Below, one piece after another: positions 20 to 54,805 of a DNA stretch of 64,000 bases. Origin of the DNA: Candidatus Woesearchaeota archaeon (GTDB lineage: Archaea > Nanobdellota > Nanobdellia > Woesearchaeales > JAGLGH01); the NCBI GenBank assembly GCA_030670545.1, contig DAOVBM010000002.1, positions 4,258 through 68,257 on the forward strand. The letters run 5' to 3'. Every line of letters starts with the position of its first letter. The first letter of the stretch is position 1. Below the pieces are notes generated by a model, which was not told the origin of the DNA, did not search any database, and worked only from the letters and a program-made list of their open reading frames with translations. A program made the position numbers and the translations under genes.

Positions 20-1033
20 ATGTTCAAGACAGTCTGCAAAAAATGCGAGAGTGAGATAAAGAAAGAATACATAAATTTTGACATAAAAATGATCTGCCCT
101 TATTGCGAAACAGAGAACATAATCCCTCCAGAAATAAAAGAAGATTTCATATCCTGCAAAGGATGCAAAAGAATCCTAAGAAATAATGAAAAAGGTGGGG
201 CACAGCAATGCCAAAAATGCGGGAATAAGGAATTTATCCAAAAATTTGACAACTCATCAATACTTGAGATTGATTCTGTTCTTATATCGTCCAGGCACCT
301 TTACAGGATGGTCTACAGCCTGCACGAGAAATCAGGGCTTGCATCTGTGCCTGTTGACATAGATAAGATACTTGATTTCAAGAGGGAAGATGCAGATCCA
401 AAGATTGTGAAGATAGGGGATACTGTATTCCTTGACACATCAAAATGCAGGCCAAATGAAGCAGGCAAGCTGATACAGGAAGCATTTGATGATGATCCTC
501 TTATTGAAGTGGAAGAGATTGAGCTAAACAAGGAATATGAAACTCCGAGGTCTGCTATACCTCAGGAGTTTTTTCCTCCATGCATAAAAAAGATGCTTAA
601 TGGTATGAAAGATGGAAAAAAGCGCGCCTTGTTTGCGCTTATAAATTTCCTTGACTCTTTGGGATGGGGACATGATGGCATAGAAGATCTGGTAAGAGAA
701 TGGAATGAAAAAAATGAAGAGCCGCTTAGGGAAGTATATATCAAAGGCCAGCTTAAGCATCACAAGCAGAAAAAGAAGCATATGCTGCCGCAGAACTGCA
801 AAAGCTATTATGAGGACCTCCAGGCCTGTTTTCCAGATATGATCTGCAGTAAGATAAAGAATCCTGTGAATTATGCGCATGTCAAAGTGTGGATAAAGAA
901 TAATGATAAGAACAGGAATAAGAAGCTGCCAAGAGAGAAGCCAGACCTGACAAAAGAACAAAAAGAGTTCATGCAAAAGAGAAAGGAAGAAGAGAAAGAG
1001 TTTAAGAAAAAGATGAAGGAAAAGAAGAGTTAA
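20..1033 (+). CDS. Zn-ribbon protein with DNA primase large subunit C-terminal (PriL-CTD, Fe-S) like domain
   Basis: N-terminal CxxC...CxxC ribbons. Central segment FPPCIKKML...KRALFALINFLDSLGW...EDLVREWNEKN...YIKGQL matches the conserved FPxCM...LFL...G...E..L..W block of eukaryotic/archaeal PriL/PRIM2 CTD. Additional Cys residues (NCKSY, QACFPDMIC) are candidates for 4Fe-4S ligands. Lys-rich tail. Confidence 0.5.
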   Translation: MFKTVCKKCESEIKKEYINFDIKMICPYCETENIIPPEIKEDFISCKGCKRILRNNEKGGAQQCQKCGNKEFIQKFDNSSILEIDSVLISSRHLYRMVYSLHEKSGLASVPVDIDKILDFKREDADPKIVKIGDTVFLDTSKCRPNEAGKLIQEAFDDDPLIEVEEIELNKEYETPRSAIPQEFFPPCIKKMLNGMKDGKKRALFALINFLDSLGWGHDGIEDLVREWNEKNEEPLREVYIKGQLKHHKQKKKHMLPQNCKSYYEDLQACFPDMICSKIKNPVNYAHVKVWIKNNDKNRNKKLPREKPDLTKEQKEFMQKRKEEEKEFKKKMKEKKS

Positions 1034-1104: not shown

Positions 1105-1629
1105 ATGAAAGTTAAATTAATTATTCTATTCATTGTTCTTATGCTTGTTTGTAGTGGTATTGCTGTTGCTGACCAGAAGGTTGTCAGTAGTGAGAATGAT
1201 TTTACTGCTGGGAGTTTTAGTGGTTTGCAATTGAATCTTGAGCCGACAAGCACTTCATGCAATTATAAGTATACCTCAATTGGTTATGATTATTATACAA
1301 GTGGTCAGCATGGCTGTGATACATGTAATGCTTGTAATAGTATAGGTGCTTGTGATGCAGTACCTATTGATACACCTTGTGGCAGCTGTCAGTATTGCGA
1401 CAACAACGGGCAGTGTAGGATAATGAAGTGGTCTTACGCTGGGTTTGCAACTGGTAAGTGTCGTGTTATAGCGTACGGATCAGTGGCTTGTCTTCCAAGT
1501 ACTGTCGGCACGAAAAGCTATCCTAATCTGGTAACGAATGGTGCGTGTGACGGTGTCTACGCTTCAACAATCGACACTTCACAACCTACTTTTGTCTGTA
1601 GAGCACAATTGTGCGGATATGCTAGTTAA
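1105..1629 (+). CDS. Cys-rich small secreted protein (signal peptide), partner of the downstream PEF-CTERM protein
   Basis: N-terminal hydrophobic signal MKVKLIILFIVLMLVCSGIAVA. About 20 Cys in 150 aa. Ends 4 nt before the next gene. A second such pair occurs at 38718-42478. Confidence 0.6.
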   Translation: MKVKLIILFIVLMLVCSGIAVADQKVVSSENDFTAGSFSGLQLNLEPTSTSCNYKYTSIGYDYYTSGQHGCDTCNACNSIGACDAVPIDTPCGSCQYCDNNGQCRIMKWSYAGFATGKCRVIAYGSVACLPSTVGTKSYPNLVTNGACDGVYASTIDTSQPTFVCRAQLCGYAS

Positions 1630-1632
1630 TAC

Positions 1633-2841
1633 TTGATAAAAATGAACAAAAAAACAATCATCGTAACTTTACTAACCATTTTCTTAGCTAGCTCTGTCTC
1701 TGCATTGAATCTTACGCTTGAGGAAACAGGAGGGATCTATGCAACATCTGGCACTTGGAATTACAACCTGGATTCTGGATATTCTGCTGCTGAATGGCAT
1801 AATATTACATGGGTTGGAGATGAGCCTGTAAATACAAATATCCAGTTCAGGGCAAGGACTGCTGAAGATGAATCTTCATTAAGTTCTGCAACTTGGTCAG
1901 GCTATATTGAAACCTCAGTAATAGCATTAGATATTGGAAACGGCAGGTGGGTAGAAGTTGAGGTTGCTCTTAGCACAACTGATACATCTGTAACGCCAGC
2001 CTTATACAGTTTTACAATAAATTATGTTGAAATGACTGAGCCAACATTTTCCAGTTTTGATGATTCAGATACAACTAACTTATCAGCAGTTGAAAATATA
2101 ACAAATGTAACAAGCATGACACTTGCAGTAATAGGCAAAGGAAAGATCAAATTTCCAGAAAGCATTGAAATAAATGCCTTTGCCCAGGATTATGACATGC
2201 ATATAAAGATAGAAGATGAATTTATCTCTGTTGATACTGCTGCTCTGGATGAAAGCTTTAACACTTCTGCAACTCTTACATTAGAAGGTGTAACCTGTCC
2301 TGTTGCGACAATCACATATCAGGAAGGAACATTTACCTCAAAAGATGATATCATCGCAGGAGGTAGCAATTGTGAATTAGATGGAGTCTGTTCAAACATA
2401 CAATGTACTGGAACAACTCTGACATTTGATGTAGCTCACTTTACAGGATTCGCAGCAGGAGCAGATGCTAATCTTACAACAGAAGCAGAAGCAGGTGTCA
2501 AATTCCCTCTTGATAATATTGAATTCTATGCATGGTATGTTAATTCAACAGATGGAACTCCAATATCAGGAGAATGTGATATTACCTTTGATGACGACTG
2601 GAATTCTGCATTCACTATGGATTACAATGGTTCAGAATATAATTATACAAAGTCATTTGCTACATCTGGGATGCATGAATACAATGTGACATGCTCATCT
2701 GCAAACTTTGTGACATTAGAAGCGAATGATACAAAGCTGGTAAGCAGCGTTGATATACCTGAGTTTAGTTTATTAACATTAGGATTAGGATTGATTGCTG
2801 TGTTGATAGGATTGTTTGTAATTAGAAAGAAAAAATCATAA
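1633..2841 (+). CDS. PEF-CTERM sorting-signal cell-surface protein (putative archaeosortase substrate), N-glycosylation sequon rich
   Basis: Signal peptide. C-terminus is IPEFSLLTLGLGLIAVLIGLFVIRKKKS, i.e. a PEF motif, then a TM helix, then a basic tail. Shares a ~60-aa pre-anchor module and a CSNIQCTGTTLTFDV motif with the 21128-24529 and 39515-42478 proteins. Confidence 0.75.
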   Translation: MIKMNKKTIIVTLLTIFLASSVSALNLTLEETGGIYATSGTWNYNLDSGYSAAEWHNITWVGDEPVNTNIQFRARTAEDESSLSSATWSGYIETSVIALDIGNGRWVEVEVALSTTDTSVTPALYSFTINYVEMTEPTFSSFDDSDTTNLSAVENITNVTSMTLAVIGKGKIKFPESIEINAFAQDYDMHIKIEDEFISVDTAALDESFNTSATLTLEGVTCPVATITYQEGTFTSKDDIIAGGSNCELDGVCSNIQCTGTTLTFDVAHFTGFAAGADANLTTEAEAGVKFPLDNIEFYAWYVNSTDGTPISGECDITFDDDWNSAFTMDYNGSEYNYTKSFATSGMHEYNVTCSSANFVTLEANDTKLVSSVDIPEFSLLTLGLGLIAVLIGLFVIRKKKS

Positions 2842-21127: not shown

Positions 21128-24100
21128 TTAGATCCTTTGCTTTTTTCTGACAATTACTAATCCAATCAGCACAGCAACAAGTCCTAATCCCAAAGTGATT
21201 ATTGAGAATTCTGGAATCTCAGCGCTTGTTATGGTAGCATTGTCAAAAGCAGTCAATGTTGAGAATCCTGTCTTGCTGCAGGTTACATTGTAATCCTTTA
21301 AGCCTTCTGTCACAAATGTCCTGTTGTAAGTGTATATTGCGCCTTCAGCCATTGGATAATTTCCGTCAGTGAAATAAATTGTGCATGTTGCTCCTGGTAT
21401 TGGTGAATCATCTGTCACATTCCTGTAATCTGCTGTGAAATGCACTTCCTGACCAACAAGCTTAGGATCATCTGCATCAATTGATAAATTAACATCTGCT
21501 TCTGCTGCATAACCAGAGAAAGATAATACATCAACAGTTAATGTTGTGCCTATACATTGAATGTTTGTGCATTGTGGAGCAAGGCACTGATTGTTTTCAG
21601 ATAAAAGAGTTGCTCGGTCATTTGCTGTTGCGCTATAAAACACATATGGGCTTGAACAATCAACATTATCAAATGTTAATGTTGCAGAGTTGTTTAACTC
21701 ACTGTATGCTACTGAATCCACTTTAACAAATTTGTCAGAAAAAATTGTTGCAGTATCAAAATCAATTGATTTTGCATTAAGATCAAGAGATGTTCCAGTC
21801 CAGTCAATCTTGCTTTGAGTGCCATTAACAACTAAGTCTTTGACTGTATAGTTGCTTATTGCATTTGTTGTTACTGTGTATGTTGATGAGGATATAGAAG
21901 GCGCTGTTCCATCTAATAAATCAAAATCACGATGGATATTGTAATCCAATAGTTCATTCATATCACCATATATCCAAACATCATACCTCACATCATCTGC
22001 AACACTGTTATCAAAGTTTGTTGAACCAAAATATCCATTGTAAACTCCTACAGAAACATAAGTCATACCTGATTTTGTATGTGAACCATAAGGATGTCCA
22101 TAATGGTTTGTAAGGTTAAGTTTAATCTCTGAGGGATTATAAAGAACTCCATCTCTTCTTATTGTAATCTGATACCAGATATCATCTCCAACATAATAAG
22201 TAGATGTTCCTGAAGGATACAAGAAATCTGTTTCAATGCTGAAATTATAACTTGCATCTGATCCTGAACAATCCTCGTCTATACCATTTCCAACAATATC
22301 ATAAGCCTCAGGATTAATATCTGCATTATTATCATTGCAGTCAGGAACAGTTGGATTGTCGCATTGAGTTAAGTTTGTGCCTTCTGTACCATAACCATCG
22401 CCATCATTGTCAACGCAGCCAGCTGCCCCTCCAGTATATTGTATTGTGATTCCGCTTAACTCAGGAGTGTTTGCTGAATTAGTTGTTCCTAAATCAATTG
22501 CAAAGTCTAATGTGCCTGCACTGAATCCATAAGACCATTGGCTTTCAGTTATTGCTTCTAAAGCTGTTTTAGACATTCCATTTGTTTGTAGATCATCAAG
22601 AGTTGATGTTGTCCATGCACTACCTGCCCAGTACTTCCAATTGATTCTGCCATCAAAGCTAACAAGATATTTAAGTGAAGTTCCTGAAGGTGTTGTTTCA
22701 GTTGTTGTAACTGATTTGATTGCAGGCCATGATGAAGTGTCTATCTGGGAGTTGTTTGAATAGATGTAGTATGGTTTGGATGTTGGGTAGGCAGAAGATA
22801 TTGATGTTAAAAATGTTTTTGTTTCTCCGCCAGTAAAACTAATTCCACTTCTTGAGTCCAATAAATTCCAAGTTGAATCATCATTTGATCCTTCAAGTGT
22901 CCAAACAGTAGGTTTATAACAACCACCTGCATCACAATAAGAAGAAGTACTCAATCTGTATTGAGAAATAATGTAATTGTTTCCGTTTCCAAAATCTATT
23001 GTAACATAGTAAGGAAATGGGGCATAATTTATAACTCCATCTACATAAGAAGATGTCGGACCAAATCCATCAAACATTTTCCATACAGGTGTTGTTCCGT
23101 AAAAACCATTTGGAGCATATCCTGTAACGACTTTAGGACTAGGCGTTGTTGATGAAGTCATATCATTCATTATCCATGATTCTGTTCCAGAATTATAAAA
23201 TTGTAACTCTGCTACTTGTCCCTGTTCATGCGATGGGGAACTAGAAGAATTAATTATTGTAATCTTAAAATATCTAAAAGAATATTCTTCAGTAAATAAT
23301 CTGATTATATTATCAACAAAAACAGTTCCATCTGTAGCATCTTCCTGTACCCAGGCACTTTCTGTATCAAAATCAATATCATATGTGCCAGTATCAGATA
23401 CATTAAAGTGAATATAATAATCATATGTTACATTACTTGTTGCTGTATCATTACACTTAATGTAATAATCATAATTACCGCCATTAGTTAATCCGATTAT
23501 TGTTGAACTATGTGAAGTTCCGCCTGTTGTTGAAAAGAATATCATTTGTGAAAAATCCAGTTCTAAACTTGTTGAATATTTGCAATTTGCATTAATGTTA
23601 GTTGAAACTCCTAATGTTGTATTTGTTGTTCCAAAAGCTAATTGTGAATTATTTGTTGGTTGCGGATTTGAGATTTCCAAAACAGGCTCTTCAATATACC
23701 TTATTATTACTATCCCTGAACCACCTGTACCTCCAAAGAAATTTGCAGATCCAGATGAACCTGCACCACCGCCACCCCCCCCTGTGTTTACAGTTCCTGC
23801 TATTCCATTACCATATGACACACCACCTGCACCTCCACCACCACTACCTCCAGAACCAGAAGTACAACTTACATGACAGCCACCACCACCACCACCAGCG
23901 TAATAAGTTCCAAAAACAGACAATCCTACACCACCATTTCCTGAAGCTACTCCACTTGCGCCAACTGCTCCTGCACCTCCACCGCCACCCCCACGATAAG
24001 TAGGACTACTTGTAGCAGCTCCGCCATTGTTCCCTTGCTCAGCTGTTTCTGATCCACCTGCACCAGTGTGGTAAACTCCTCCACCTCCAGAACCACCACT

Positions 24101-26567: not shown

Positions 26568-28412
26568 ATGATGAAAAAAGTCTTTCTGATTTGGTGCCTT
26601 ATAGCAATATTATTAATAATCCCTGTATCGCTTGCAGAATATGGCAGCCTTAAGCTTCTTGCTGTCCAGGAGAAAGGAGGAAATCTCTCAGGCAGCCTTG
26701 CAGACTTGCATCTGGAGATAAATCCAGGAAACGGAAGGGTGTTTATGGATACTTTTCCCCTGACAAAACTTGACACCCAGGTATCGACAAGGTTTGCAAA
26801 AGAGATTGCATGCAATTATCTTGACATTAATTGCGATAAGTATGACTTTTTTTATACCATCAGATCAAATTCCCCTATAATTGCAGGTCCTAGCGCTGGC
26901 GCAGCCATAACAGTGCTTACTATAAGCCTTCTTGGAGATATTGATATCTCTGAAGATGTTGCAATAACCGGCACAATCAACTCTGGAGGGATAATAGGCC
27001 CTGTAGGAGCTCTGCAACAGAAGATAGAGGCAGCAAGCAGGGATGGAATAAGGAAAGTGCTTATTCCTGTAGGAGAAAGATACTCTGCAAAGGATATCAC
27101 AGGCCTTAACAATCTCTCAGCAATTATAGAAACAGGCGCAGATGAGAACATCACTGCAAAAGATATAATACAAGGCAGGAAAGGCATTGACCTTATTGAA
27201 TTAGGGGAAGAGCTTGGCATAGTAGTCAGGGAAGTGTCAGATATTGAAAATGTTCTTTTTGAGTTCACAGGAGTATCTTATGGAAAAGATATAGGGAATA
27301 TATCAATTGACCCTCATTACAGTCTGGTCATGAGCCAGCTTGCGATAGAGTTATGCAGGAGAAGCGGTGAGTTCATGGACAAGATAACATCAGATAGAAC
27401 AGTTTCCCACAGCTTTGAAGAGAGTTATGAGAATATATATCAGACTGCATTAAATTTTACAGGAAAAGGGGATAAAGCATTTGAGCAGGAAAGGTTCTAT
27501 TCATCTGCAAGCTATTGTTTTGGCGCAAATGTAAAATTAGGCCATATTACATTATGGATACAGAATGAATCTGATACGCAGCTTACAGAAAGGATAAATG
27601 CGATTGAGACAGAGATTGAGGCATTTAAGAAAAAAGAGTATAAGACAATAACAGACCTGCAGGCATATATGGTAGTAGAAGAAAGGATAACAGATGCAAA
27701 AGATTTTCTTGAAGCAAGCAAAAAGGAACTAGCTATGGGAAACAGAGATCAGGCATTGTATAGTATTGCTTATGCTATAGAAAGAAAATTCAGCGCTTAT
27801 GCATGGAGCACTTTCATAACCGGAAAAGGAAAAGCATTCAGGCTGAGTAATGAGGATATGCGCAAGTCATGCCAAAAAAAGCTAAGTGAAGCTGAAGAAA
27901 GATACCAGTATGTCGCATTATTCCTGCCAAGCTATCTCTCTAAGATTAGGAAAGGCATTGATGCAGCATATTTGGATTTCAGTAATAATAATTCTGAGGC
28001 ATGTCTCTTCAAGGCATCAAAAGCAAAAGCTGAGATCAATGTAATATTGAATGTATTTGGTGTTGAAAAAGAAAATTTTGATAACCTTATTGAAAGAAAA
28101 CTTGATATTGTGGAAAAGACTATCATTAAACAGACCAGGAAGGGAATCTTTCCAATAGTCGGGTTTAGTTATTATGAATACGCTAGTGATCTGAAAGATA
28201 TTGATCAGTTTTCTTCATTGCTTTATATCGAATATGCGCTTGAGATGAGCAATCTTGACATATATTTTCCTGAAAAGTATGAGATAACATTCACTGATCA
28301 GGATAAGAGTGAGATAGGAATCTTTCTTATAGGACTGGGAGCAGGACTTCTGATTGCTGTCATAATCATGATAAGAGCAAAGAGGAAGCCGATATCAAAA
28401 AAGAAAAAATAG
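26568..28412 (+). CDS. Exported Lon-like serine peptidase (S16 family proteolytic domain) with C-terminal TM anchor
   Basis: Signal peptide. The GPSAGAAITV...K (QQKIEAASRDGIRKVLIP) Ser-Lys dyad region resembles the Lon protease domain. C-terminal TM plus KKKK tail. Confidence 0.55.
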   Translation: MMKKVFLIWCLIAILLIIPVSLAEYGSLKLLAVQEKGGNLSGSLADLHLEINPGNGRVFMDTFPLTKLDTQVSTRFAKEIACNYLDINCDKYDFFYTIRSNSPIIAGPSAGAAITVLTISLLGDIDISEDVAITGTINSGGIIGPVGALQQKIEAASRDGIRKVLIPVGERYSAKDITGLNNLSAIIETGADENITAKDIIQGRKGIDLIELGEELGIVVREVSDIENVLFEFTGVSYGKDIGNISIDPHYSLVMSQLAIELCRRSGEFMDKITSDRTVSHSFEESYENIYQTALNFTGKGDKAFEQERFYSSASYCFGANVKLGHITLWIQNESDTQLTERINAIETEIEAFKKKEYKTITDLQAYMVVEERITDAKDFLEASKKELAMGNRDQALYSIAYAIERKFSAYAWSTFITGKGKAFRLSNEDMRKSCQKKLSEAEERYQYVALFLPSYLSKIRKGIDAAYLDFSNNNSEACLFKASKAKAEINVILNVFGVEKENFDNLIERKLDIVEKTIIKQTRKGIFPIVGFSYYEYASDLKDIDQFSSLLYIEYALEMSNLDIYFPEKYEITFTDQDKSEIGIFLIGLGAGLLIAVIIMIRAKRKPISKKKK

Positions 28413-38717: not shown

Positions 38718-39488
38718 GTGTGGATGAAAAAGATAATAATTATATTTGCTTTATGTATTGTTTTAGCAGTAGGCAATGTGATAGCTTTGTCTGTGTGGAA
38801 TACAGAGGAGAAATTAGTCACAGGAAGTGTTCTGAATAGAGTCCAGATAAATATAGATAATACAGGAACATGCGAAGCAAAAAGATATGTCTATTTTGGT
38901 TATGATTTTCCTATTTCAGGAATAGATTCTGGCCTATGCAGTGAATGCGATGGTTCTGGCAGCATGACTTCTGCTTCAGATGATTCTGGCTGCGGAATAA
39001 TAGACTGCGACGGTATGAATTATTATTTCACAGAAGGCAGTGCTTCTGCAATAGGAACAAATTATTGTAAACAAAAAGATTATGCTGACATAACTTCAAA
39101 CAGATGCGAAGGATTAAATGACTGCAAAGATGCAAACACAGCAGACTGCACATCTTATTCAGATTTAACTGCTGCTACATGCGGAACATGCAAATATGCA
39201 ACAGGCGCTTGTTCAAGCTGCACAAATTACGGTTCTGGAACCTCCTGTAGTTCAGGAATGGCATGCGATGGCAGTGGGAATTGCGTTGCAACAGGAGGAA
39301 CTTGGGTTTATACAGGGGCTTATCTTATTGGTGATTCAGGCCCACCTGGTTGTCCAGTTGGAACAACAGTAGGAGGGGTTTGTCCTACTCTTGGTGAAAA
39401 ATGTAATATAGGAGTAGTTGGTATGGGTCCTCCTACTATGGGTTTTCCTACTGGAACCCCAATCATTGGTATTGTAACATGTCAATAA
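38718..39488 (+). CDS. Cys-rich secreted protein (second copy of the small-partner family)
   Basis: Signal peptide, >25 Cys, immediately upstream of a PEF-CTERM protein. Confidence 0.55.
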   Translation: MWMKKIIIIFALCIVLAVGNVIALSVWNTEEKLVTGSVLNRVQINIDNTGTCEAKRYVYFGYDFPISGIDSGLCSECDGSGSMTSASDDSGCGIIDCDGMNYYFTEGSASAIGTNYCKQKDYADITSNRCEGLNDCKDANTADCTSYSDLTAATCGTCKYATGACSSCTNYGSGTSCSSGMACDGSGNCVATGGTWVYTGAYLIGDSGPPGCPVGTTVGGVCPTLGEKCNIGVVGMGPPTMGFPTGTPIIGIVTCQ

Positions 39489-39514: not shown

Positions 39515-42478
39515 ATGAAAAAAACAACAACAACAATCATAATAACTTTATTAACAGTTTTAATAACAAGCTCTGTCTCAGCATTAAACATAACGCTTTA
39601 CTACAATGAAACAACTGGGCTGTATGATGAGAGCGGGGATTATACATCATCTGCAGACAATTACGGTGGCTCGCCATTATACGCCTGCGTGATTGAATGG
39701 GAAGAAGATACTCCTTCAGGTACTGATATCACAATGCAGCTGAGGTCTGGCAATGCAGAGCCTTTGTCAGGAGACTTTATAGGGCCTGACGGAACCTCCG
39801 ACACTTATTATCAAACAAGCCCTTCTATCGCAAACTCAACGCATAATTCTAATACCTATATTCAATGGAAATCATTTTTAACTACAACAGATACATCAAT
39901 AACTCCAACATTATACAATGCAACTTATTGGTGTTATTCAACCTGTACTTCAGATTTAAATTGTAATGCAGGCTTATACTGCATCAGTAATGAATGCGTT
40001 CCGAACACTGCTCCTGAGATGGTAGGCATAACAGACAGCCCAGATCCAATCAAAGGCGGGACAAGCATCACAATCACTGCAAATGGAGTCACAGACCTCC
40101 AGGATGATACGCTTTATCTTTACTGTGGAACAACAACTACCCCTGATTCAGGAAATACTATCTGCGCAGGCGGAACAACATCAGATACAGGAGATCCTTA
40201 CAATCTTGACTGTACATTTCCTGTACCAACAGATGACACAACACATACAGTCTATTGCAGGCTTTATGATGGAACTGTCTACAGCGCTGTAAACTCAACA
40301 ACATATACAACAGACAGCACTCCTCCTGCAGCTGTTACAATCACAAGTTTAGATGGTGATATAGCATCACCTTACTGGGATACTTCAGACAATTCACAAA
40401 CAATAATCTACGCAGACAGGCCGGATTCAGGTATGTTATGCAGATGGTCAACAACTGATATACCATATTCCAGTATAAGCAGTTCTAATGATTGTACAAT
40501 GGGAGAGGATAGTACACAATGCAACCTAGGCAGCCTTTCCCAATCAGCCTCTTACACATACCACATATCTTGTTCTGATGCTGTTGGCAATGATCAATCA
40601 ACAGCCCAAAATACAGGTATCACATTCGGAGTTGACTGGACAGAACCCAGCACTTATGTAAGCGGCACAGGAAGCTATTATGTTCCAGGACATGAAGTCA
40701 TATTCCATGAAGAAGATAATATAGGCACACCTGCTACAATCCTTACATGGCATTGTACTTCTGACCTCGGCTGCACTCCTGTAATTGAAATTGACAATCT
40801 TGAGGATGTTACATTCACAGAAAGAGGAACTAATTATTTAAGATGGTACAGTAAAGATGCAGCAGGCAATGACCAGCCAGCACAGGGTGTAACTGTAGAA
40901 ATTAACAGCCTGCCTGTGATAACTGATGATGATATGTTCTCAGGTGTCGAGGGATCAGGTGATTTCACTGGACAAAAAGGCCAGAAAGCGCATTTCTACT
41001 GCAAAGGCACAGATTCAAACGGAGCAGTTGACGGCAATGCAGGATATTCTGCAAAGATATGGTTAAGAGTCTCCGGTTCTGGAACATGGGACAGGGTAAA
41101 TGGCGTTTCAATGACATGGGATTCAGCAAATAACAGATTTTTCTATAATTTAGTTTCACCTATCACTGACAGCTATAATACAAAATGGGATATGATGTGC
41201 GAGATTACTGATGATTTAAATGAAGGGGCAAATCATACAAAGAATAATGTATTTACAGTTGTAAATACCCCTCCAAATGTTGATGAGATATTTGTAGGCT
41301 ATCCAAATGCGCAAAAATTCGATAATCAGCGCTGGAAATGCGCAGTAGTTGATTATGATGACCAGCATTCAGGCAATGCTATGGAAGTAATATTCTCGCT
41401 GGCAGAAAGAGGTTATCTTATTTCGGGTCCCCTGCTTCTTGATAATGTTACAATGACATGGGAAAGCGGGGCTAATTATTATTATGATAGGATTGTGCTG
41501 GAAGATGGAGATACACATTATGATGCACAATGCCTGGCTTACGATGGAGTAGAGTATTCATCAATGCGCACAGAACTTGATGTTCCAGAACATATTGTAA
41601 GCAATGACTGGGACGGCGACGGAGTATCAGATTCAGCAGATAGCCTTGAAGGTACAGGAGCAGACCTTGACACAGCACTGAGTGTTACAATAAAAGTTGA
41701 CGGCATAGTCAACAATAGTCCGAGAGGCTCGCATACAGTTACATTCGAAGATAATGGTGTAGAATTTGTTAGGTTTACAAATGACTTTGATACAAACGAA
41801 CTTTTAACACCATGGATTATAGTTGATAGGATAGCAACAGGCGAAAAAGGAAGTGTGCTTGTTAGTGGACTTGAAGGGATATCAAAGACATTGCGTATTC
41901 CTAAGCTTCTTGGCTCTGGTTTAATATGTCTAAAGAATTCATCAGTAACAAGCATTAGTGAGATAAGCTCTGGGTGTGATGAACCAGACGAGATATTATT
42001 TGCCAACTGCGGTATTGGAGGGGAAACGATTGGAGGAATTACATGTATTGATAAGACCACATATTATGAAGTAAGTGGAGTGACCCATTCTGCAGTAATT
42101 GAATTTGGCAATGCAAGATTAGAGGTATGGTCAGAGGGTACATATTGGCAGCTTGATGATATATTCTTCTATGTCAACTACACAAATTCAAGTTCAGGTG
42201 CAGCAATAACAGGAGCTGATTGCAATATCTGGTTTGATGACACTGGATGGAATGATATGGCCTTTGATGGAACATTGCATAACTATAACCGGACTTTCAA
42301 CAGCGCAGGAGACAGGACATACAATGTAAGCTGTACACATGCAACTTATACAAATCTAACAGTTCAGGACAGCTTTACAATATCTCAAAGCGCTATCCCT
42401 GAGTTTTCAGTATTAACTCTTGGATTAGGGTTGATAGCTGTGTTGATTGGATTGGTAATAATCAGGAAAAGAAGATAG
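39515..42478 (+). CDS. Large PEF-CTERM cell-surface protein
   Basis: Signal peptide, many N-x-S/T sequons. C-terminal module YNRTFNSAGDRTYNVSCTHATYTNLTV...IPEFSVLTLGLGLIAVLIGLVIIRKRR. Confidence 0.75.
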   Translation: MKKTTTTIIITLLTVLITSSVSALNITLYYNETTGLYDESGDYTSSADNYGGSPLYACVIEWEEDTPSGTDITMQLRSGNAEPLSGDFIGPDGTSDTYYQTSPSIANSTHNSNTYIQWKSFLTTTDTSITPTLYNATYWCYSTCTSDLNCNAGLYCISNECVPNTAPEMVGITDSPDPIKGGTSITITANGVTDLQDDTLYLYCGTTTTPDSGNTICAGGTTSDTGDPYNLDCTFPVPTDDTTHTVYCRLYDGTVYSAVNSTTYTTDSTPPAAVTITSLDGDIASPYWDTSDNSQTIIYADRPDSGMLCRWSTTDIPYSSISSSNDCTMGEDSTQCNLGSLSQSASYTYHISCSDAVGNDQSTAQNTGITFGVDWTEPSTYVSGTGSYYVPGHEVIFHEEDNIGTPATILTWHCTSDLGCTPVIEIDNLEDVTFTERGTNYLRWYSKDAAGNDQPAQGVTVEINSLPVITDDDMFSGVEGSGDFTGQKGQKAHFYCKGTDSNGAVDGNAGYSAKIWLRVSGSGTWDRVNGVSMTWDSANNRFFYNLVSPITDSYNTKWDMMCEITDDLNEGANHTKNNVFTVVNTPPNVDEIFVGYPNAQKFDNQRWKCAVVDYDDQHSGNAMEVIFSLAERGYLISGPLLLDNVTMTWESGANYYYDRIVLEDGDTHYDAQCLAYDGVEYSSMRTELDVPEHIVSNDWDGDGVSDSADSLEGTGADLDTALSVTIKVDGIVNNSPRGSHTVTFEDNGVEFVRFTNDFDTNELLTPWIIVDRIATGEKGSVLVSGLEGISKTLRIPKLLGSGLICLKNSSVTSISEISSGCDEPDEILFANCGIGGETIGGITCIDKTTYYEVSGVTHSAVIEFGNARLEVWSEGTYWQLDDIFFYVNYTNSSSGAAITGADCNIWFDDTGWNDMAFDGTLHNYNRTFNSAGDRTYNVSCTHATYTNLTVQDSFTISQSAIPEFSVLTLGLGLIAVLIGLVIIRKRR

Positions 42479-46272: not shown

Positions 46273-48096
46273 CTAACACTTGATCTTATGATGCACTATA
46301 AAGCATTCTTTTGAATCTACCACCTTTACTTCTGACTCAATCTCTTTTTTTATCTTTTCGCAACTTGTCTTTGGATTGAGCTTCTTGTCATATCCCACAG
46401 AAAGATATTCTATTTTCTCGAATGATTCATGCTCCCTCAGGTTTATCTTTGCCTTGCTGAGAGGTATCATCCTGCTCTGCGTTATGTCGGTTATTATATC
46501 TCCTTTGATCAAATCAAAAAGCAGCTTGAACTCACAGCCTTTATCTTTGCAGGTCAGCATGCATGCAGGGATAAGATATGTAGTTATGCTCTTTACAGGC
46601 TTTTCTGACATAAGCACAAGGTCTTTTATCGACGTCTTTGGCTTTATCACTGGCAGTATATCTTTTGATGCAAACTTCTTTGTCTCCTTCAGCACATCAA
46701 TAGTCTCTTCCTCTTCTCCAAGGATATCAATCGCTTCTCCACCATGCTTTGATCTCTTGGGCCTTATATTCACAAGAAGGGGCATGTCAACAATCCCTGT
46801 GATCATTGCTGTCCCTATAGGCAGGCTCTTGATATTGCTTTCAGACTCTGAAGATATCCCCTCAACTGATGATATGATTGCCTTAAGGTCATTTGGATTT
46901 GTGACTTTCAGGATTATCTGTGTATTGCACTGCGAGAGCACAGATTTCTCGACTCTTGCAGGCCTCTGCGTAATTATGCACATCCCAAGCCCAAACTTGC
47001 GGCCCTCGCTTGCTATTGTCCTGATGATGCTTGCGGATTTTGCATCCCCAAATCCCCTTTCAGGGCAGAAGTTGTGCGCTTCTTCAATGACTGCAAAAAA
47101 AGGCGGTATCCTGCCCCTTTTCCTTTCTTCAAAAAGGTCTTTCATCAGCTTGTAGACAATTATCTGCTGCATCTCAGGCTCTATCCCTCTCATGTTGATT
47201 ATAGAGCAGTTGCCTGGCTGTATCAGTTCATTATATTGCGTATAATCTGAAGAGAACAGCTCAAGCTTGTCAAGATAGTCTATGACATTGATAAGGTTCC
47301 ACTTTGCATTATTCTCCTCGGTTTCAAGCTCAAGCAGCAGCCCTGTGATTGTCACAGGATTAAGGTTCTTGAGCGCAGAATACAGCACAGCCATCTGGTT
47401 TGATGTCAGCTTGCCAGGCATGAGGTGGATAAGCTCCTGGCTTGTCATCTGATCATTTAGCTTCAGCGGAATTGATTCATTGTTTATGTTTATATCTCCA
47501 TATTCCCTAATCTGTCCTGCATAGCTCTTGGCTGTTATGCCAAACTTTTCCATCCTCTCTATGTCTTTCTTATTGTCATTCTTCTGTTTTAATGCAGAGT
47601 ACTCTCCATGGGGGTCTATTATAAGCAGAGGAACTTTCTTCTCGAGAATCTCTTCTATCAGCACTGAGGCCATGTATGATTTTCCTGCTCCAGTTTTTGC
47701 GATTATTGATACATGCTTTGTGAGAAGCTTTTTCAGGTCAAGCCTTATCATTATGTCCTTAGAGTCAAGTTTTCCTATATAAGCTCCATTCCTGTTTGTT
47801 TCAAGAGCAAGCACACCTTTTATTAGTTTGTCTTCAGCTTTCAGTACTTCTGAACCAGAAGCAAAAGGAATTCTCATCTGCCTTACTTTCTTATCTTTGT
47901 CAACATAGCCTATCACATTGCAGAGAGCTATAGTTTGGTTCTTATCAGAAATAAGCTCTATTATCTGACCAAGCACAAACTCATAATTCTTATGATACAC
48001 CTGCACATAATCAAACTTTCTTGCATCATGGTCTACTGCAAACCTGAAACTGGTTGTTGTAATCCTTCCTGTAATCTTGCCAAAAATCATAGACAT
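46273..48096 (-). CDS. HerA/FtsK-superfamily ATPase (DUF87-type) with extra Cys-containing C-terminal domain
   Basis: N-terminal barrel, Walker A IIAKTGAGKSY, DPHGEY, Walker B LLIIDEAH-like block (FFAVIEEAHNF). No NurA/Mre11/Rad50 neighbours. Confidence 0.65.
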   Translation of the reverse strand: MSMIFGKITGRITTTSFRFAVDHDARKFDYVQVYHKNYEFVLGQIIELISDKNQTIALCNVIGYVDKDKKVRQMRIPFASGSEVLKAEDKLIKGVLALETNRNGAYIGKLDSKDIMIRLDLKKLLTKHVSIIAKTGAGKSYMASVLIEEILEKKVPLLIIDPHGEYSALKQKNDNKKDIERMEKFGITAKSYAGQIREYGDININNESIPLKLNDQMTSQELIHLMPGKLTSNQMAVLYSALKNLNPVTITGLLLELETEENNAKWNLINVIDYLDKLELFSSDYTQYNELIQPGNCSIINMRGIEPEMQQIIVYKLMKDLFEERKRGRIPPFFAVIEEAHNFCPERGFGDAKSASIIRTIASEGRKFGLGMCIITQRPARVEKSVLSQCNTQIILKVTNPNDLKAIISSVEGISSESESNIKSLPIGTAMITGIVDMPLLVNIRPKRSKHGGEAIDILGEEEETIDVLKETKKFASKDILPVIKPKTSIKDLVLMSEKPVKSITTYLIPACMLTCKDKGCEFKLLFDLIKGDIITDITQSRMIPLSKAKINLREHESFEKIEYLSVGYDKKLNPKTSCEKIKKEIESEVKVVDSKECFIVHHKIKC

Positions 48097-49973: not shown

Positions 49974-50234
49974 ATGATGAATCCTGTTGGAGAGCTGATA
50001 GACCCTAAGATTGCCAGAGTCATAGCTCTGCTTATAAAGAACAGGAAAGACTATTTCCATCTGCAAAAGATATCACAGGAGGCAGGTGTCCCGATTTCTA
50101 CTACTTTCAGGATAATAAATAAGTTGGTAAATCTTGGCTTTATCGAGAAGACAAATGTCGGTAATTTCAAGATATACAAGATAGCAGGAAACAGGAAAAC
50201 TGCGCAACTTTGCAGGGTATTATCAATCAAATGA
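49974..50234 (+). CDS. Small winged-helix transcriptional regulator
   Basis: HLQKISQEAGVPISTTFRIINKLVNLGFIEK is a HTH plus wing. Its stop overlaps the start of the giant gene in an ATGA arrangement. Confidence 0.5.
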   Translation: MMNPVGELIDPKIARVIALLIKNRKDYFHLQKISQEAGVPISTTFRIINKLVNLGFIEKTNVGNFKIYKIAGNRKTAQLCRVLSIK

Positions 50235-53200
50235 GAATAGGCAAAGAGACAAATGACAATCTTGCTCTCAGGAGAGCAGGAAGAGAAAAGAGAAAGCTGA
50301 TCAAGCTGCTAAGGGGGACTCAGATGAACAAATCTGCTCTTATCAATGCAGTAAAAGGCCTTAATGAACAGTATGAAAAAGGAATGTTCAGCTATGATCT
50401 GTATAAGATAAGGTATGATGCTCTTCTTGGAACAAGGACAGTAAAGCAGTGGTCCAGGCATTATGATTATTATGCAAAATGCTGCATGGATGGCATTGAC
50501 AAGCTGGACACGCAGATTGAGCTATTAAACTCTGAAAGACAAGAGCTTCCTGTCCCTCCTGCTATAGCATACCTTGTGTTTGCAGCATTGATAGGATTAA
50601 TGGGATTTTTCCTCATTAAGCCTGCATTCATAGGGTTTGTGACATTTGAAAAAACAGTTAGCGCAAGTGATGATCTGAATCTCACATTTAACGAGTCTGG
50701 AACTTATATCTGGTCTCTATCAAGAGCAGGACAGCTGAACAGCATAATGGTGTCTGGAAGAGTCACATCCGGCGGCTCTGCAATAGTATCAATAATAAAC
50801 GACAATAAAAGCTATGTTATATTCAATTCCTCTTTGCTTGAATTAGGAGGTTTTGGAGCTATAACCGGCTATGCCACATTCGGAGAATATGCAGCAGAAG
50901 TGGATAATATAGCAGTCACAGAGCCGGTTGTCATTACTGAAGGTGATGTTCCTGGAGATGTAACTCTTGACATCTCAATGCAGTACAAACCAGGAACAGT
51001 ATTTGATCCTGAAGATGATGGCAGGGAATCAACAGGAGGATTTATTGATTTCACAGTTGAGAACACAATAACAGATCAGGATGAGTCATTTCTTTGCGCT
51101 ATCTGGGATATAAACAATATCTACAGGGAATGCTATGGGAGTGGATTGTGCTGTGACTTTGTAGAAGTTGAGAGGTATGATTCAGACTGGAAAAAACCTT
51201 TCCTTGTATTTTATGGGCTTGAAGGAGTAAATCTTGATAATAATATAACTTCCCAGGTGTGGTATGTTGATTACAATCTTTCCCTTGAGAATCCATATTC
51301 ATACATATACTCAAGCGATACACTGCAGCTGCCTGCAATGTTCTATTACAGGGGGTATCTGTTTGAGGATTCATGCATAGACACCTGTCTTATTGCAGGA
51401 TTGGGATTCAACAAGACAAATTATACACTGAACATAACAATAGATAATGCTGAGATTGATATATCGACACTGGATTACATCCTTAGTGTTGAGGAATATG
51501 CTGCGAAAGAGACATTGGTTCAGCATAAGGCAGAGATAAACAAGCCTGTCAGATGGACAAAAACAAAGAAATATGATGTTAAACAAGATAGTATTCCATT
51601 TAATATATCTGAGAATGCAGAAAATATTACGATATATAAAAAGGAGAAACAAGACCTGAAAAAAGTTAAAGAAGAAAACATCAAAATAAAAAAAGAAGAA
51701 GATAAAAAAATAGAGATACTGATTAGTGAAGAAGCAAACGAAATAGAGATTGAATACTATACTCCTGCTCCTGAAACAATTGAGATGGACATATCTCCAT
51801 CCTCCAAAAAAATTATTGTAACATCTGAAGAGCATTATACAGATATCTTTACTTATACATCTCTGCCTTCAGAAGCAAAACCAGAGTTTGTGCATCTCTA
51901 CTGGCTTGTCAATGATACAAGGATAGAAGTACCAGATGTTGTGAAGAATGACACAAATGGTAATGGATTAATAGACTGGATTGAATGGATAACTCCTCAC
52001 CTGAGCAACCAGACTTATGTGATTGAGATAGATATAAACAGATCAAGCCCTACATTCTATGAAAGAAGCCCTGATACATGCGACGCTACAGAGTATGCAC
52101 TTGTTGATGATAATCAATATACAACCTGTAAAAAAGGCCAATATGACTGGTGGAGCGGCTATGATTTTTCAGGCATACCTGATAATGCTAATATTACAGG
52201 GATAAAGATTGAACTTAAAGATGCATATACCAAGAAAGGCAAAGAGTCTTACGCAGGCATTAGGTTATCCTGGGATGACCATTCAAACTGGACTCTTGCT
52301 AAAATCTCATCTGTAATAAATGAAAGCAGCTTGCCTGGAGGCACATATGTTTTCGGCAGCTCCACTGACACCTGGGGCCGTAACTGGACAGCTGATGAGC
52401 TAAAAAACCATTTCTGGGTAGAATGGAATATAACTGGACTTAATCCTGTATCTGCAGACTGGCTGCCTGTATCTGTATATTACACTCTTGAGATAGACCT
52501 GCTCTCCCCAGTTACTGATCTTGGACGCCAATCTTCTGACAATACCTGGATATACTGGAATTGGACAAACCCCTCTGAAGAAAATTTTACAGAGAATATC
52601 ATATATATTGATGGAGTCTGGAAACAGAACACTTCTAATAATTACTATAATGCAACTAATCTTGTCCCTAAGCAAAACTATACAATCACTGTCCATACCA
52701 AAGACATATACAGCTATGTCAATACTAACGATGTGAACAACACTGCTGCTGCTACAAATGCAACACCTCCTATAGTCACAAACATAACAAGAGTCAGCCC
52801 TTCAGCTTTCATTGAAAGCCCTTCAAGGTGCAGTGATAGTTTATACGTTTATAGTGATGATGAACAATATGCATACTGCGACAAAAATGAATATGAATGG
52901 TGGAATGGGTATGATTTTTCAAGCATACCTGGTGGCGCCATTATTACTGGAATACAGGTTGAACTTAAAGATACATATTGCCCCTCAGAGAAAATATCTT
53001 ATGCAAACATAAGCCTGTCGTGGGACAACAGAAGTTCCTGGACAAGCGAAAAAATCTCATTCCAGATAATTGATACAATCCCTCCTGGAAGAACATATAT
53101 TTTCGGTGGTTCAAATGACACCTGGAATCATAATTGGACATTAGATGAAATAAAAAACAATTTTTGGGTTGAATGGGAAACAACTGGAGAAAATGCAGGC

Positions 53201-54805
53201 GGAGTATATATGGACTGGCTGCCGGTAACAATATTTTATACCTATGTCCCTCAACTAGGTTCTGTGGCAAACCTCAATAATCCAGATGCTGGAAAGACAT
53301 GGCTATACTGGAACTGGACAAATCCCCGTCTTGGGGACTTCAGTGAGGCTGTCATCTATCTGGATGGTGTCAATGTGATTAATACCTCTAATAATTATTA
53401 TAATGCGACTAATCTTATGCCCAATACTGCTTACACTATTATTGTGCATACCAAAGATGTCGATGGGAATTTGAATACATGGGATGTAAGCAGATCTGCA
53501 ATTACCAGAAAGATTGTTTATTTAGAAGCAAACGCCAGCAAAATAAGTCCTACCACCTTTGTGCAAAGCCTAAGTAAATGTGATGCATCCAGTTATGTAT
53601 ATATCTATGATGACCTTTATACTTATTGCAATGAGGGTAGATATGACTGGTGGGGGGGATACAATTTTTCAATCATCCCTGATAATGCAATAATCCATGG
53701 CATAGAAGTCTCACTATTTGATACATATACTGTCAAAAATCGCGTATCTTATGCAAACATAAGCCTATCCTGGGATAATATGAGCTCCTGGACCAGCGCA
53801 AAGACCTCCCTCCAGATTAATGAGATTGAATTGCCTGGGGGAGATTACATATTAGGAGGAGAAAATGATACCTGGGGACGCAGCTGGACTGCTGACGAGA
53901 TAAAGAATTATTTTTGGGTTGAGTGGACGACTGTTGGAACAGATGCAGGGAGGGTATATGCCGACTGGCTGCCTGTTACTATATACTATTCTGTACCTAC
54001 ACAGCTGCCTTTAGTTAATGAATTCATTCATCCTGACACCACAAACTTTTCTGCTGCTGCAGATTTAGAAAAGATTGAAAGAATGACATTAGCAGTAGAT
54101 AATACAAAAGTGGCCTGGATAAACGCAGTGAATGCTACTGGTGAAGATTATGATGTTGAGATAAATATGGCTGAAGGGTTTGTATCAGTCAATGTGCATG
54201 CATTGCATCATACAATCAATTCAACTGCAAATGTCACTTTAGAGAATATCAATTGCAGTGAGTTTAGATTATATTATGCAGAAGGATTTTACCCGTCAAG
54301 GTTTGAGCTTGTGTCTGTGGGGAATATCATAGCTGATGAATCAAATCTGGAAGGGAATTGTACAGATGCTTCAATATGCACTGATTTATATTGTTCTGGA
54401 AATACTCTTAACTTCATTGCTCAGCACTTTGATGGGTTTGGTATTGGAGCGATATTGTGGGTAAATGCAACATCTCCTGTTGGATTTGGAGATAATGTTA
54501 CTATAGATACAGAAATCCTTGAAGGCAATTATACAATTGATACTGTTCTGGCTGGCATAAAACCTCCTGGAGCTGATGAAGTGAATTATACAATGCATAA
54601 TATTTCCTCAAGCACATTTGTTCTGGATAATTATACTAATTATCTCCCTGGCACTTATAATTATACTGTGTATGTGAATAATACTGATGGTAATATAACG
54701 ACCGATAGCGGATTCTTTGACATGTGGATTAATATGACTCTCGGAATTATGACTATTAAAGATATATATAGGGTTGATGAGATTGTGAACCTGACAAGTG
54801 TATGA
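50231..54805 (+). CDS. Giant (~1520 aa) membrane-anchored, heavily N-glycosylation-sequon-rich surface protein with 3 tandem ~250-aa repeats (novel domain + FN3-like)
   Basis: N-terminal cytoplasmic ~100 aa, one TM helix (AIAYLVFAALIGLMGFFLIKPAF). Repeat units begin CDATEYALVDD, CSDSLYVYSDD and CDASSYVYIYDD at 52079, 52829 and 53579 (750-bp period). FN3-like WIYWNWTNP...NYYNATNL...YTITVHTKD. C-terminal CTDLYCSGNTLNFIAQHF motif shared with the PEF-CTERM proteins, but no PEF anchor. Confidence 0.7.
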   Translation: MRIGKETNDNLALRRAGREKRKLIKLLRGTQMNKSALINAVKGLNEQYEKGMFSYDLYKIRYDALLGTRTVKQWSRHYDYYAKCCMDGIDKLDTQIELLNSERQELPVPPAIAYLVFAALIGLMGFFLIKPAFIGFVTFEKTVSASDDLNLTFNESGTYIWSLSRAGQLNSIMVSGRVTSGGSAIVSIINDNKSYVIFNSSLLELGGFGAITGYATFGEYAAEVDNIAVTEPVVITEGDVPGDVTLDISMQYKPGTVFDPEDDGRESTGGFIDFTVENTITDQDESFLCAIWDINNIYRECYGSGLCCDFVEVERYDSDWKKPFLVFYGLEGVNLDNNITSQVWYVDYNLSLENPYSYIYSSDTLQLPAMFYYRGYLFEDSCIDTCLIAGLGFNKTNYTLNITIDNAEIDISTLDYILSVEEYAAKETLVQHKAEINKPVRWTKTKKYDVKQDSIPFNISENAENITIYKKEKQDLKKVKEENIKIKKEEDKKIEILISEEANEIEIEYYTPAPETIEMDISPSSKKIIVTSEEHYTDIFTYTSLPSEAKPEFVHLYWLVNDTRIEVPDVVKNDTNGNGLIDWIEWITPHLSNQTYVIEIDINRSSPTFYERSPDTCDATEYALVDDNQYTTCKKGQYDWWSGYDFSGIPDNANITGIKIELKDAYTKKGKESYAGIRLSWDDHSNWTLAKISSVINESSLPGGTYVFGSSTDTWGRNWTADELKNHFWVEWNITGLNPVSADWLPVSVYYTLEIDLLSPVTDLGRQSSDNTWIYWNWTNPSEENFTENIIYIDGVWKQNTSNNYYNATNLVPKQNYTITVHTKDIYSYVNTNDVNNTAAATNATPPIVTNITRVSPSAFIESPSRCSDSLYVYSDDEQYAYCDKNEYEWWNGYDFSSIPGGAIITGIQVELKDTYCPSEKISYANISLSWDNRSSWTSEKISFQIIDTIPPGRTYIFGGSNDTWNHNWTLDEIKNNFWVEWETTGENAGGVYMDWLPVTIFYTYVPQLGSVANLNNPDAGKTWLYWNWTNPRLGDFSEAVIYLDGVNVINTSNNYYNATNLMPNTAYTIIVHTKDVDGNLNTWDVSRSAITRKIVYLEANASKISPTTFVQSLSKCDASSYVYIYDDLYTYCNEGRYDWWGGYNFSIIPDNAIIHGIEVSLFDTYTVKNRVSYANISLSWDNMSSWTSAKTSLQINEIELPGGDYILGGENDTWGRSWTADEIKNYFWVEWTTVGTDAGRVYADWLPVTIYYSVPTQLPLVNEFIHPDTTNFSAAADLEKIERMTLAVDNTKVAWINAVNATGEDYDVEINMAEGFVSVNVHALHHTINSTANVTLENINCSEFRLYYAEGFYPSRFELVSVGNIIADESNLEGNCTDASICTDLYCSGNTLNFIAQHFDGFGIGAILWVNATSPVGFGDNVTIDTEILEGNYTIDTVLAGIKPPGADEVNYTMHNISSSTFVLDNYTNYLPGTYNYTVYVNNTDGNITTDSGFFDMWINMTLGIMTIKDIYRVDEIVNLTSV

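Follow-up and report, generated by a model that had tools for sequence, protein, structure and literature searches.

A recurrent gene pair in a DPANN archaeon that may encode a two-component surface adhesin with an anchorless head and a PEF-tailed stalk

The SlaA/SlaB surface layer (S-layer) is built from the products of adjacent genes, an anchorless outer protein being held non-covalently on a β-sandwich stalk with a C-terminal transmembrane (TM) helix. In cohesin–dockerin systems, a short conserved tag on diverse cargo plugs, in a type-specific manner, into a β-sandwich receptor of a cell-anchored scaffold. Here we describe a cassette of two adjacent genes, present twice in a 64,000-nucleotide (nt) stretch of DNA assigned to a Candidatus Woesearchaeota archaeon (assembly GCA_030670545.1, contig DAOVBM010000002.1; hereafter ‘the window’), in which a small anchorless secreted protein (C1, C2) is encoded beside a stalk protein (P1, P2) with a C-terminal PEF-type tail; a third PEF-tailed protein, P3, bears its own head (Table 1). 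We put the chances at about even that the pair is a co-transcribed two-component adhesin, the anchorless head being docked on a PEF-anchored and possibly self-cleaving stalk.

The cassette would fall among anchored modular surface adhesins, and its closest functional analogues would be the two systems above, neither of which shows detectable homology to it. As in SlaA/SlaB, an anchorless protein and a membrane-held β-sandwich stalk come from adjacent genes, docking being proposed here, and a Sulfolobales SlaA/SlaB structure (PDB 8qox) was among the Foldseek matches of P1. However, no sequence homology was found, the C proteins are small, variable-headed and rare, and nothing suggests a lattice. 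The likeness to cohesin–dockerin is one of function only: the tag of the cassette would be N-terminal and Cys-containing, with one receptor domain per stalk. No Pfam match to cohesin (PF00963) or dockerin (PF00404) was obtained with C1, C2, P1, P2, P3 or either family alignment.

A life on the surface of host cells is generally assumed for DPANN archaea, by a mode of attachment that is largely unknown, and large Cys-rich or hypervariable surface proteins are typical of DPANN and of the candidate phyla radiation (CPR). The proteins described here resemble these in being secreted and rich in Cys, Thr and Ser, in their β-sandwich repeats and in belonging to the reduced genome of a probable episymbiont; they differ in being encoded by a conserved, specific unit of two genes that is marked by a defined family of N-terminal motifs. 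A cassette that splits the head from an anchored stalk would offer a concrete, testable model of modular host recognition, and the N-motif family provides a handle for finding heads in metagenomes. Diversification of Nanoarchaeota proteins involved in symbiosis is treated in a published study (PMC6142677).

For the stalk tail, the nearest described system is PEF-CTERM/ArtC (Haft et al. 2012, as cited in PMC5244752 and PMC6098224), which has been described for Methanosarcinales and ANME-2 (PMC5244752); archaeosortases occur in a subset of Euryarchaeota (reviewed in PMC6098224). Both systems have a tripartite C-terminal signal, in which a PEF signature precedes a hydrophobic helix and a basic cluster, and several paralogous surface proteins per genome. 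They differ in that the tails here score below the family cut-off, the host is a DPANN archaeon and not a methanogen, and no archaeosortase is seen in the window.

Pairing of head and stalk genes at eight loci

C1–P1 and C2–P2 lie in the same order, as the original prediction from the letters of the window had it, and the tight spacing it noted is seen in both pairs (3–12 nt between C1 and P1, 26 nt between C2 and P2). P3 stands on its own, again as first described: its neighbours are a putative major facilitator superfamily (MFS)-type transporter and a histidyl-tRNA-synthetase-like open reading frame (ORF), with no C-family gene among them.

Hidden Markov models of the P N-terminal domain (alignment A3) and of the C N-terminus (alignment A1) were run over all ORFs of 54 loci and of the window. 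The P-type β-sandwich was found at the mature N-terminus only in the window (twice) and at loci L003, L007, L008 and L012, and in each case the gene adjoins a C-family gene. Two further P1 orthologues (L054 and L055), looked up afterwards, both have an adjacent C gene, bringing the pairing to eight of eight independent loci. These come from the metagenome-assembled genome (MAG) of the window, the MAG GCA_034723595.1 (L007, L008) and contigs of four further metagenome samples. The idea of a recurrent module, which had been made to depend on conservation of the pair in relatives, is thus borne out.

The arrangement of the pair varies from locus to locus. L003 is the orthologous pair of C2–P2, and at L055 the C gene lies 43 nt upstream of P. 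At L008 the order is reversed, P being followed by C with 16 nt between them, and L054 (positions 1–2128) reads C-P-C, with the first C gene running up to the P start codon and 2 nt separating the P stop from the second; two different head genes can accordingly flank a single stalk gene. The reversed order and the C-P-C arrangement therefore indicate separate genes that are held together. Pairing is also subfamily-specific, C1-type genes being found only with the short P1-type (six loci) and C2-type genes only with the long P2-type (two loci). A functional link between the C and P genes is very probable. A recent duplication of the two cassettes of the window was considered and rejected, DNA similarity being confined to about 80 nt in the tail and about 83 nt in the P signal peptide (78% identity). 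In a profile search of the genome contigs, the C motif was matched only in MAG014, at three loci.

The small proteins had been described as carrying signal peptides, and both C1 and C2 have one of the Sec type. The defining feature of their family is a motif of about 45 residues at the mature N-terminus. A profile of this region (A6), searched against 1.84 billion representative proteins, returned 24 matches, of which 22 are real and two are repeat-protein artefacts; with 22 representative clusters among 1.84 billion, the family is rare. With a single exception among the 22 real matches, the motif stands directly behind the signal peptide, and cleavage is predicted just ahead of [DN]QKV… or its C2-type equivalent. 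The C1-type motif reads [AS][DN]QKV.S.E.DF..G.FS..QLN…C..RY.S.GYDY and the C2-type motif ..W[ND]TE..L..GS…VQ[IL]N[IL]DN.G.CDA.R[YF]…GYD[YF]P. In C1, residues E30, G36, Q42, N44, G60 and Y61 are conserved in the alignment with 22 relatives. Both window proteins conform to the family, with a signal peptide and the motif, no anchor, and an adjacent gene for a stalk with an N-terminal β-sandwich; homology between them is confined to the N-terminal ~90 residues (27% identity, E = 5e-8).

Behind the motif come a Cys-rich spacer and then highly variable C-terminal parts, made up of Lcl_C, Fib_succ_major, DUF1554, LamG, TSP3 or Cys-rich repeat modules. In the 22 real representatives, neither a TM segment beyond the signal peptide nor a PEF tail is present. 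Neither C1 nor C2 has a Pfam or NCBIfam match, and the C-motif family is without a model in either database. From these sequences, members of the C family are predicted to be secreted without an anchor and to carry interchangeable heads, many of which are lectin-like. The initial view of the small protein as a lectin-like co-component of an adhesin accords with the Lcl_C, Fib_succ_major, DUF1554 and LamG heads of its relatives; it does not extend to C1 and C2 themselves, in which no domain is recognisable. Similarly, the more than 20 cysteines ascribed to each small protein are present in C2 (21, of which 20 in the mature protein) and not in C1 (15, of which 14 in the mature protein). Cys content ranges from 3 to 10% across the family, and it is the N-motif, not the Cys-richness first taken as the hallmark, that defines it. 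A lipobox in the C signal peptide was also considered and rejected, since conservation does not extend to the Cys and position −1 is occupied by Val or Ile.

Two side observations concern C-type sequences in other settings. The Cys-rich module of C2 (window 38940–39300, residues ~75–195; ‘CGTIDCDG.NYY…C..R.YADITSNRCEG…CKDAN…C’) is common to differently built proteins (P0002–P0013; L002, L004, L006) at 50–78% identity and with no P neighbour. Some of its carriers have a TM helix and a ‘FIPTKTAAEW’ N-domain, one is encoded beside a Peptidase_S74 gene, and in some the module is repeated in tandem; to judge by this distribution, it is a mobile, promiscuous extracellular module and not specific to the cassette. 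P0082 (411 residues), which has no anchor, is the sole protein with an internal C-type N-motif (residues 217–263), placed after LamG and an Ig-like domain that is also found in P3, just before P3’s own head. P0082 may be N-terminally truncated.

On the stalk side, the C-terminal ~270 residues of P1 are common to about 60 proteins, and those with a named source are all from Nanoarchaeota MAGs. The N-terminal parts of these relatives differ (Fib_succ_major, FG-GAP, LamG, FGE-sulfatase, Lcl_C, Gly_rich_2, DUF2341 and others), and the C-terminal region is therefore regarded as a common stalk-and-anchor module. P1 shares 273 C-terminal residues with P3 (41% identity), and its N-terminal domain and C-terminal 145 residues with P2 (42% identity). 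P1-type proteins, of 390–413 residues, have the β-sandwich as their only N-terminal domain and no head of their own. In paired stalks this domain forms the mature N-terminus (‘ALN[LI]TL…’); elsewhere it is an internal, often tandem repeat of ~100 residues (‘…LSTTDTSVTP.L..[IV]…Y’) in large surface proteins from many metagenomes (~600 to >2,900 residues; L013–L053).

The β-sandwich domain of P1 and P2 has no Pfam match. An AlphaFold2 (AF2) model of P1, with a predicted local distance difference test (pLDDT) score of 83.5, shows three β-domains and a C-terminal helix (residues 377–398). Foldseek searches with this model returned adhesins, S-layer proteins and receptor ectodomains, matched through their strings of Ig/FN3-like domains. 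The large proteins had been called rich in glycosylation sequons, which is true of P1 (12 N-x-S/T sequons against 5.5 expected from shuffled sequence, P = 0.002); P2 (14 against 13.2) and P3 (18 against 16.5) are at the shuffled expectation.

The PEF-type tail and docking of head on stalk

P1, P2 and P3 all end as originally described, with IPEFS, a hydrophobic helix and an Arg/Lys tail: in each, the motif is followed by about 18 hydrophobic residues and R[KR][KR] at the extreme C-terminus. The consensus [IV]PEF[SN]xxTLGLGLIAVLxGLxxIR[KR][KR] is present in 55 of 55 relatives that are complete at the C-terminus, out of 60 sequences, and P373, E374 and F375 are nearly invariant in the family alignment. 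Several PEF-tailed proteins are found per genome, with three in the 64-kb window; GCA_034723595.1 has two (L007, L008), together with P0049, P0050 and P0068 under the same locus-tag prefix.

The assignment of these tails to PEF-CTERM/ArtC stands in part. Six of seven isolated tails align with TIGR03024 from end to end (profile positions 1–25 of 25), the tail of P2 with 12.8 bits and that of P1 as given in Table 1. Their scores (12.0–18.2 bits), however, lie below the curated cut-off of 23 bits. The seventh tested tail (NVPEFILL) gave no TIGR03024 match, and of the full-length proteins P1 scored 13.3 bits, with P2 and P3 not reported by the search. In agreement with the original prediction, no archaeosortase-like NCBIfam match was obtained among ten membrane ORFs of the window. 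The sub-threshold scores and this negative result both speak against a PEF-CTERM system here. At the level of sequence, then, the resemblance of the tail to PEF-CTERM appears real, and family membership is not established.

Sortase-type processing of the stalk tail is conceivable, and we would give it somewhat less than an even chance. It is a serious possibility, though short of probable, that the tail is instead a conserved TM anchor and nothing else, with neither archaeosortase cleavage nor lipid anchoring. The low TIGR03024 scores and the lack of an archaeosortase among the polytopic ORFs would be expected of a plain anchor, and archaeosortases have been described from a subset of Euryarchaeota (PMC6098224). 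The TM part also fits generic anchor models (e.g., LPXTG_anchor, positions 12–33), and the entire TM segment is conserved, not PEF alone, which close paralogy explains as well as enzyme recognition. Less readily explained by a plain anchor are the occurrence of [IV]PEF[SN] at the membrane boundary in every complete tail, with a Gly-rich helix and then a basic cluster behind it, which is the tripartite layout of PEP-, PGF- and PEF-CTERM signals, and the end-to-end alignment with TIGR03024. A PEF-type tail would carry exosortase/archaeosortase-like signals, or a look-alike, into DPANN.

In the mechanism that we propose, the C and P genes would be co-transcribed, as their spacing of 3–26 nt suggests, and both products would be secreted, as their signal peptides indicate. 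The PEF tail would hold the stalk, acting as a plain TM anchor or else undergoing archaeosortase-like processing. The C protein would bind non-covalently, via its N-motif, to the N-terminal domain of its cognate stalk, yielding a modular adhesin with exchangeable heads. Docking is proposed because gene linkage is strict and subfamily-specific and because the architectures are complementary: C proteins have variable heads and no anchor, and P1-type proteins have a membrane-spanning PEF tail and no head. Both partners are most conserved at their mature N-termini, and about 60 single-chain paralogues and relatives put their own heads on the same stalk-and-anchor module. Physical docking of the C head on the P stalk is a plausible reading of these sequence features, if slightly on the improbable side.

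Some observations count against docking. The AF2 monomer of C1 is poor (pLDDT 56) and its motif region is not confidently folded. The C motif has no significant similarity to the N-terminal segment of the single-chain relatives (hhalign Prob 2%), eight pairs are too few for covariation analysis, and conserved adjacency can also reflect co-regulation without binding. Separately, Rosetta-stone proteins were sought, and none of the 24 representatives joins the C motif to a PEF stalk. A split-domain arrangement, with C supplying a missing first strand of the P N-terminal domain, was also considered; it is weakened by the β-sandwich being self-contained in tandem-repeat proteins and by the hhalign probability of 2% given above.

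The main alternative to docking is that the genes are co-regulated and their products physically independent, the C proteins being soluble secreted lectins, toxins or matrix proteins. We judge this unlikely, while giving it appreciable weight. The complete signal peptides and missing anchor of C proteins suit such independence, as do the disordered or uncertain AF2 model of C1 and the presence of the C2 Cys-rich module in unrelated architectures that have no P gene (L002, L004, L006). Co-regulation alone, however, explains a strict, subfamily-specific pairing at eight of eight loci less well, and it leaves aside the conservation at the extreme mature N-termini of both partners and the headless P1-type stalk, whose single-chain relatives bear the same kinds of head as are found in C proteins.

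Alternatively, C might be a dedicated maturation or assembly factor for the stalk, such as a disulfide-rich chaperone or a cap that controls folding or self-cleavage. The linkage is tight enough for such a role, and C1 is small (152 residues when mature) and has no recognisable binding domain. Against it, the C-terminal parts are highly variable and often lectin-like, conservation being limited to the N-motif; this pattern suits a tag by which diverse cargo is docked better than a conserved enzyme or chaperone, and we consider a maturation factor improbable. A broken single gene, by fission or pseudogenisation of a head–stalk protein, or a stop codon introduced by sequencing is hardly credible, even though C1 and P1 are in one frame with only TAA and 1–3 codons between them and single-chain head–stalk relatives exist, given that P1 and P2 each start with their own signal peptide right after the gap, that the order is reversed in L008 and C-P-C in L054, and that spacing and frame vary among the eight loci with both ORFs intact in all. 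If no inferred step of the docked two-component adhesin holds, a lineage-specific surface-protein gene pair of modest interest remains.

A Nup98/ZU5-like domain in the stalk

The middle domain of P1 resembles the Nup98 autoproteolytic domain (APD; peptidase S59, PF04096). PF04096 was the only recurrently matched family, with 10 of 19 domain sequences at E ≤ 1 (best E = 1.9e-4) and 6 of 60 proteins at E ≤ 1e-3 (best E = 5.2e-5). Against P1 it scored 18.3 bits for the whole protein and 20.9 bits for the domain alone, over profile positions 19–146 of 148. Alignment of the family profile with the human Nup98 APD (query sequence 100% identical to PDB 7f60_C, residues 730–893) by hhalign gave Prob 62% and E = 7.4e-5 over 115 collinear columns, and set the P-family ‘FDVAHFTGFA’ on Nup98 ‘FKVSHF↓SKYG’ exactly at the autocleavage site (↓ marks cleavage throughout).

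At the end of the middle domain, the family has the conserved motif V-x-H-F-[TS]-G-[FY]-A. Of the 60 aligned sequences, all have V264, 54 have H266 and 59 have F267, and position 268 is Thr or Ser without exception. P3 has SFS in place of HFT, which we take to resemble the site of FIIND, another domain of the wider ZU5 superfamily. The likeness to the Nup98-96 APD and ZU5 thus extends to a β-rich domain of ~120–150 residues that ends in V-x-H-F-[ST]-x-[YF]. Three results tell against it: the PF04096 score of P1 is below the Pfam gathering score (28.4 bits), P2 has GVT and is without the HF[ST] motif, and a profile search of the PDB recovered Nup98 only at E = 1.5.

The ZU5, GPS and Nup96/98 domains have been united as the ZU5 superfamily by Zhang et al., and ZU5 autopeptidases have been predicted in bacterial polymorphic toxins and surface proteins (PMC3482391). 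In these predicted bacterial surface proteins, as in P1, the domain lies between outer modules and the anchor. P1-type stalks might likewise self-cleave at HF↓T, a proposal that rests on the motif and profile similarity and that we hold tentatively, leaning slightly against it. The outer fragment would then be non-covalently held and could be shed. Such a domain in an archaeal surface protein would add a new member to the ZU5 autopeptidase kind; if active, the HF[ST] domain would be an instance of archaeal surface proteins maturing by autoproteolysis, and it would be a prokaryotic relative of the nucleoporin domain.

The most far-reaching combination of these elements is an exchangeable, sheddable two-gene adhesin of DPANN, whose N-terminal ‘plug’ docks, in the manner of cohesin–dockerin, on a PEF-anchored stalk that self-cleaves via a Nup98/ZU5-type HF↓T domain. 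We regard this full combination as doubtful. If true, the sheddable adhesin would add an undescribed archaeal surface-display system, and a Nup98-APD-like autopeptidase in an archaeal extracellular protein would bear on the origin of the eukaryotic nucleoporin domain.

Features and neighbourhood of the cassettes

The features of the five window genes, all of which were confirmed as ORFs where first described, are collected in Table 1. The likelier starts are ATG 1642 for P1 and ATG 38724 for C2, in agreement with the public gene calls, which for the window proteins sit on an NCBI contig of 73,938 bp. For C1, the publicly called protein (P0074, 162 residues) begins at an internal Met and loses half of the signal peptide; the start at 1105 is preferred because it is supported by homologues such as P0075.

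Table 1. Coordinates and layout of the head (C) and PEF-tailed (P) genes in the window (aa, amino acids)
Feature	Position	Strand	Description
C1	1105..1629	+	174 aa, anchorless secreted protein; signal peptide aa 1-22 (cleavage AVA↓DQK), N-motif aa 23-65, short Cys-rich head
C1 N-motif ‘DQKVVSSENDFTAGSFSGLQLNLEPTSTSCNYKYTSIGYDYY’	1171..1299	+	Family-defining segment, proposed docking element
P1	1642..2841	+	399 aa stalk/anchor protein; alternative TTG start 1633; public call P0015; signal peptide aa 1-21, β-sandwich aa 22-131, middle domain aa ~151-270, Ig-like aa ~275-368, PEF tail aa 372-399
P1 N-terminal β-sandwich	1705..2034	+	Mature N-terminus ‘LNLTLEETG’; proposed receptor for the C motif
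P1 middle domain	2092..2451	+	Nup98 autoproteolytic-domain-like (peptidase S59, ZU5 superfamily); candidate scissile bond F267↓T268 at 2440-2445
P1 PEF-type tripartite C-terminal signal	2755..2838	+	IPEFS, LLTLGLGLIAVLIGLFVI, RKKKS; TIGR03024 16.5 bits, profile 1-25 of 25
P3	21128..24529	-	1133 aa, single-chain family member with own head (Gly_rich_2, MopE-like motif); internal β-sandwich copy, middle domain with SFS, Ig-like domain, PEF tail 21131-21217
C2	38724..39488	+	254 aa, anchorless secreted; alternative GTG start 38718; public call P0001; signal peptide, C2-type N-motif, Cys-rich repeat module
P2	39515..42478	+	987 aa long stalk/anchor protein; signal peptide, β-sandwich aa 24-144, ~600 aa of further domains, divergent middle domain (GVT), Ig-like domain, PEF tail 42395-42475

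The window, with a G+C content of 37.7%, is part of a DPANN (‘Nanoarchaeota’) genome; among named sources, ‘Nanoarchaeota archaeon’ MAGs supply the closest relatives of the studied proteins. It contains an archaeal ribosomal-protein operon followed by a putative SecY-like polytopic ORF, and also encodes SMC and RNase HII.

Directly downstream of P1, 2951–4234 (+) encodes an ATPase with AAA_14 and DUF4143 matches (E = 2.9e-36 and 6e-22), which is probably unrelated to the cassette. The ORF at 20–1033 (+) is the 3′ portion of a 544-residue ORF that is seen in full at L056 (160–1794), with a faint match to the primase small subunit and a weak one to the large subunit (PF04104, E = 3e-8); from these matches it appears to be a fused PriS–PriL primase. 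In the MAG GCA_034723595.1, the stretch directly downstream of the P–C pair (L008, 2616–9365) encodes a 394-residue membrane protein, an 859-residue polytopic protein that includes a large soluble domain, and three paralogues of ~310–330 residues with lipobox-like signal peptides (…SGC, …CGC, …SGC), with no Pfam match in any of them.

A 1,531-residue ORF without Pfam match (50210–54805, +) lies near a HerA-like ATPase (46273–48096, minus strand) and several small ORFs; this region may be a mobile or defence-type element. Finally, 26568–28412 (+) encodes a protein of 614 residues with a signal peptide, the C-terminal proteolytic domain of Lon protease (S16; PF05362, E = 4.9e-13) and a C-terminal hydrophobic helix with a basic tail (…RAKRKPISKKKK). 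By its sequence features, it looks like an extracytoplasmic, membrane-tethered Lon-type protease.

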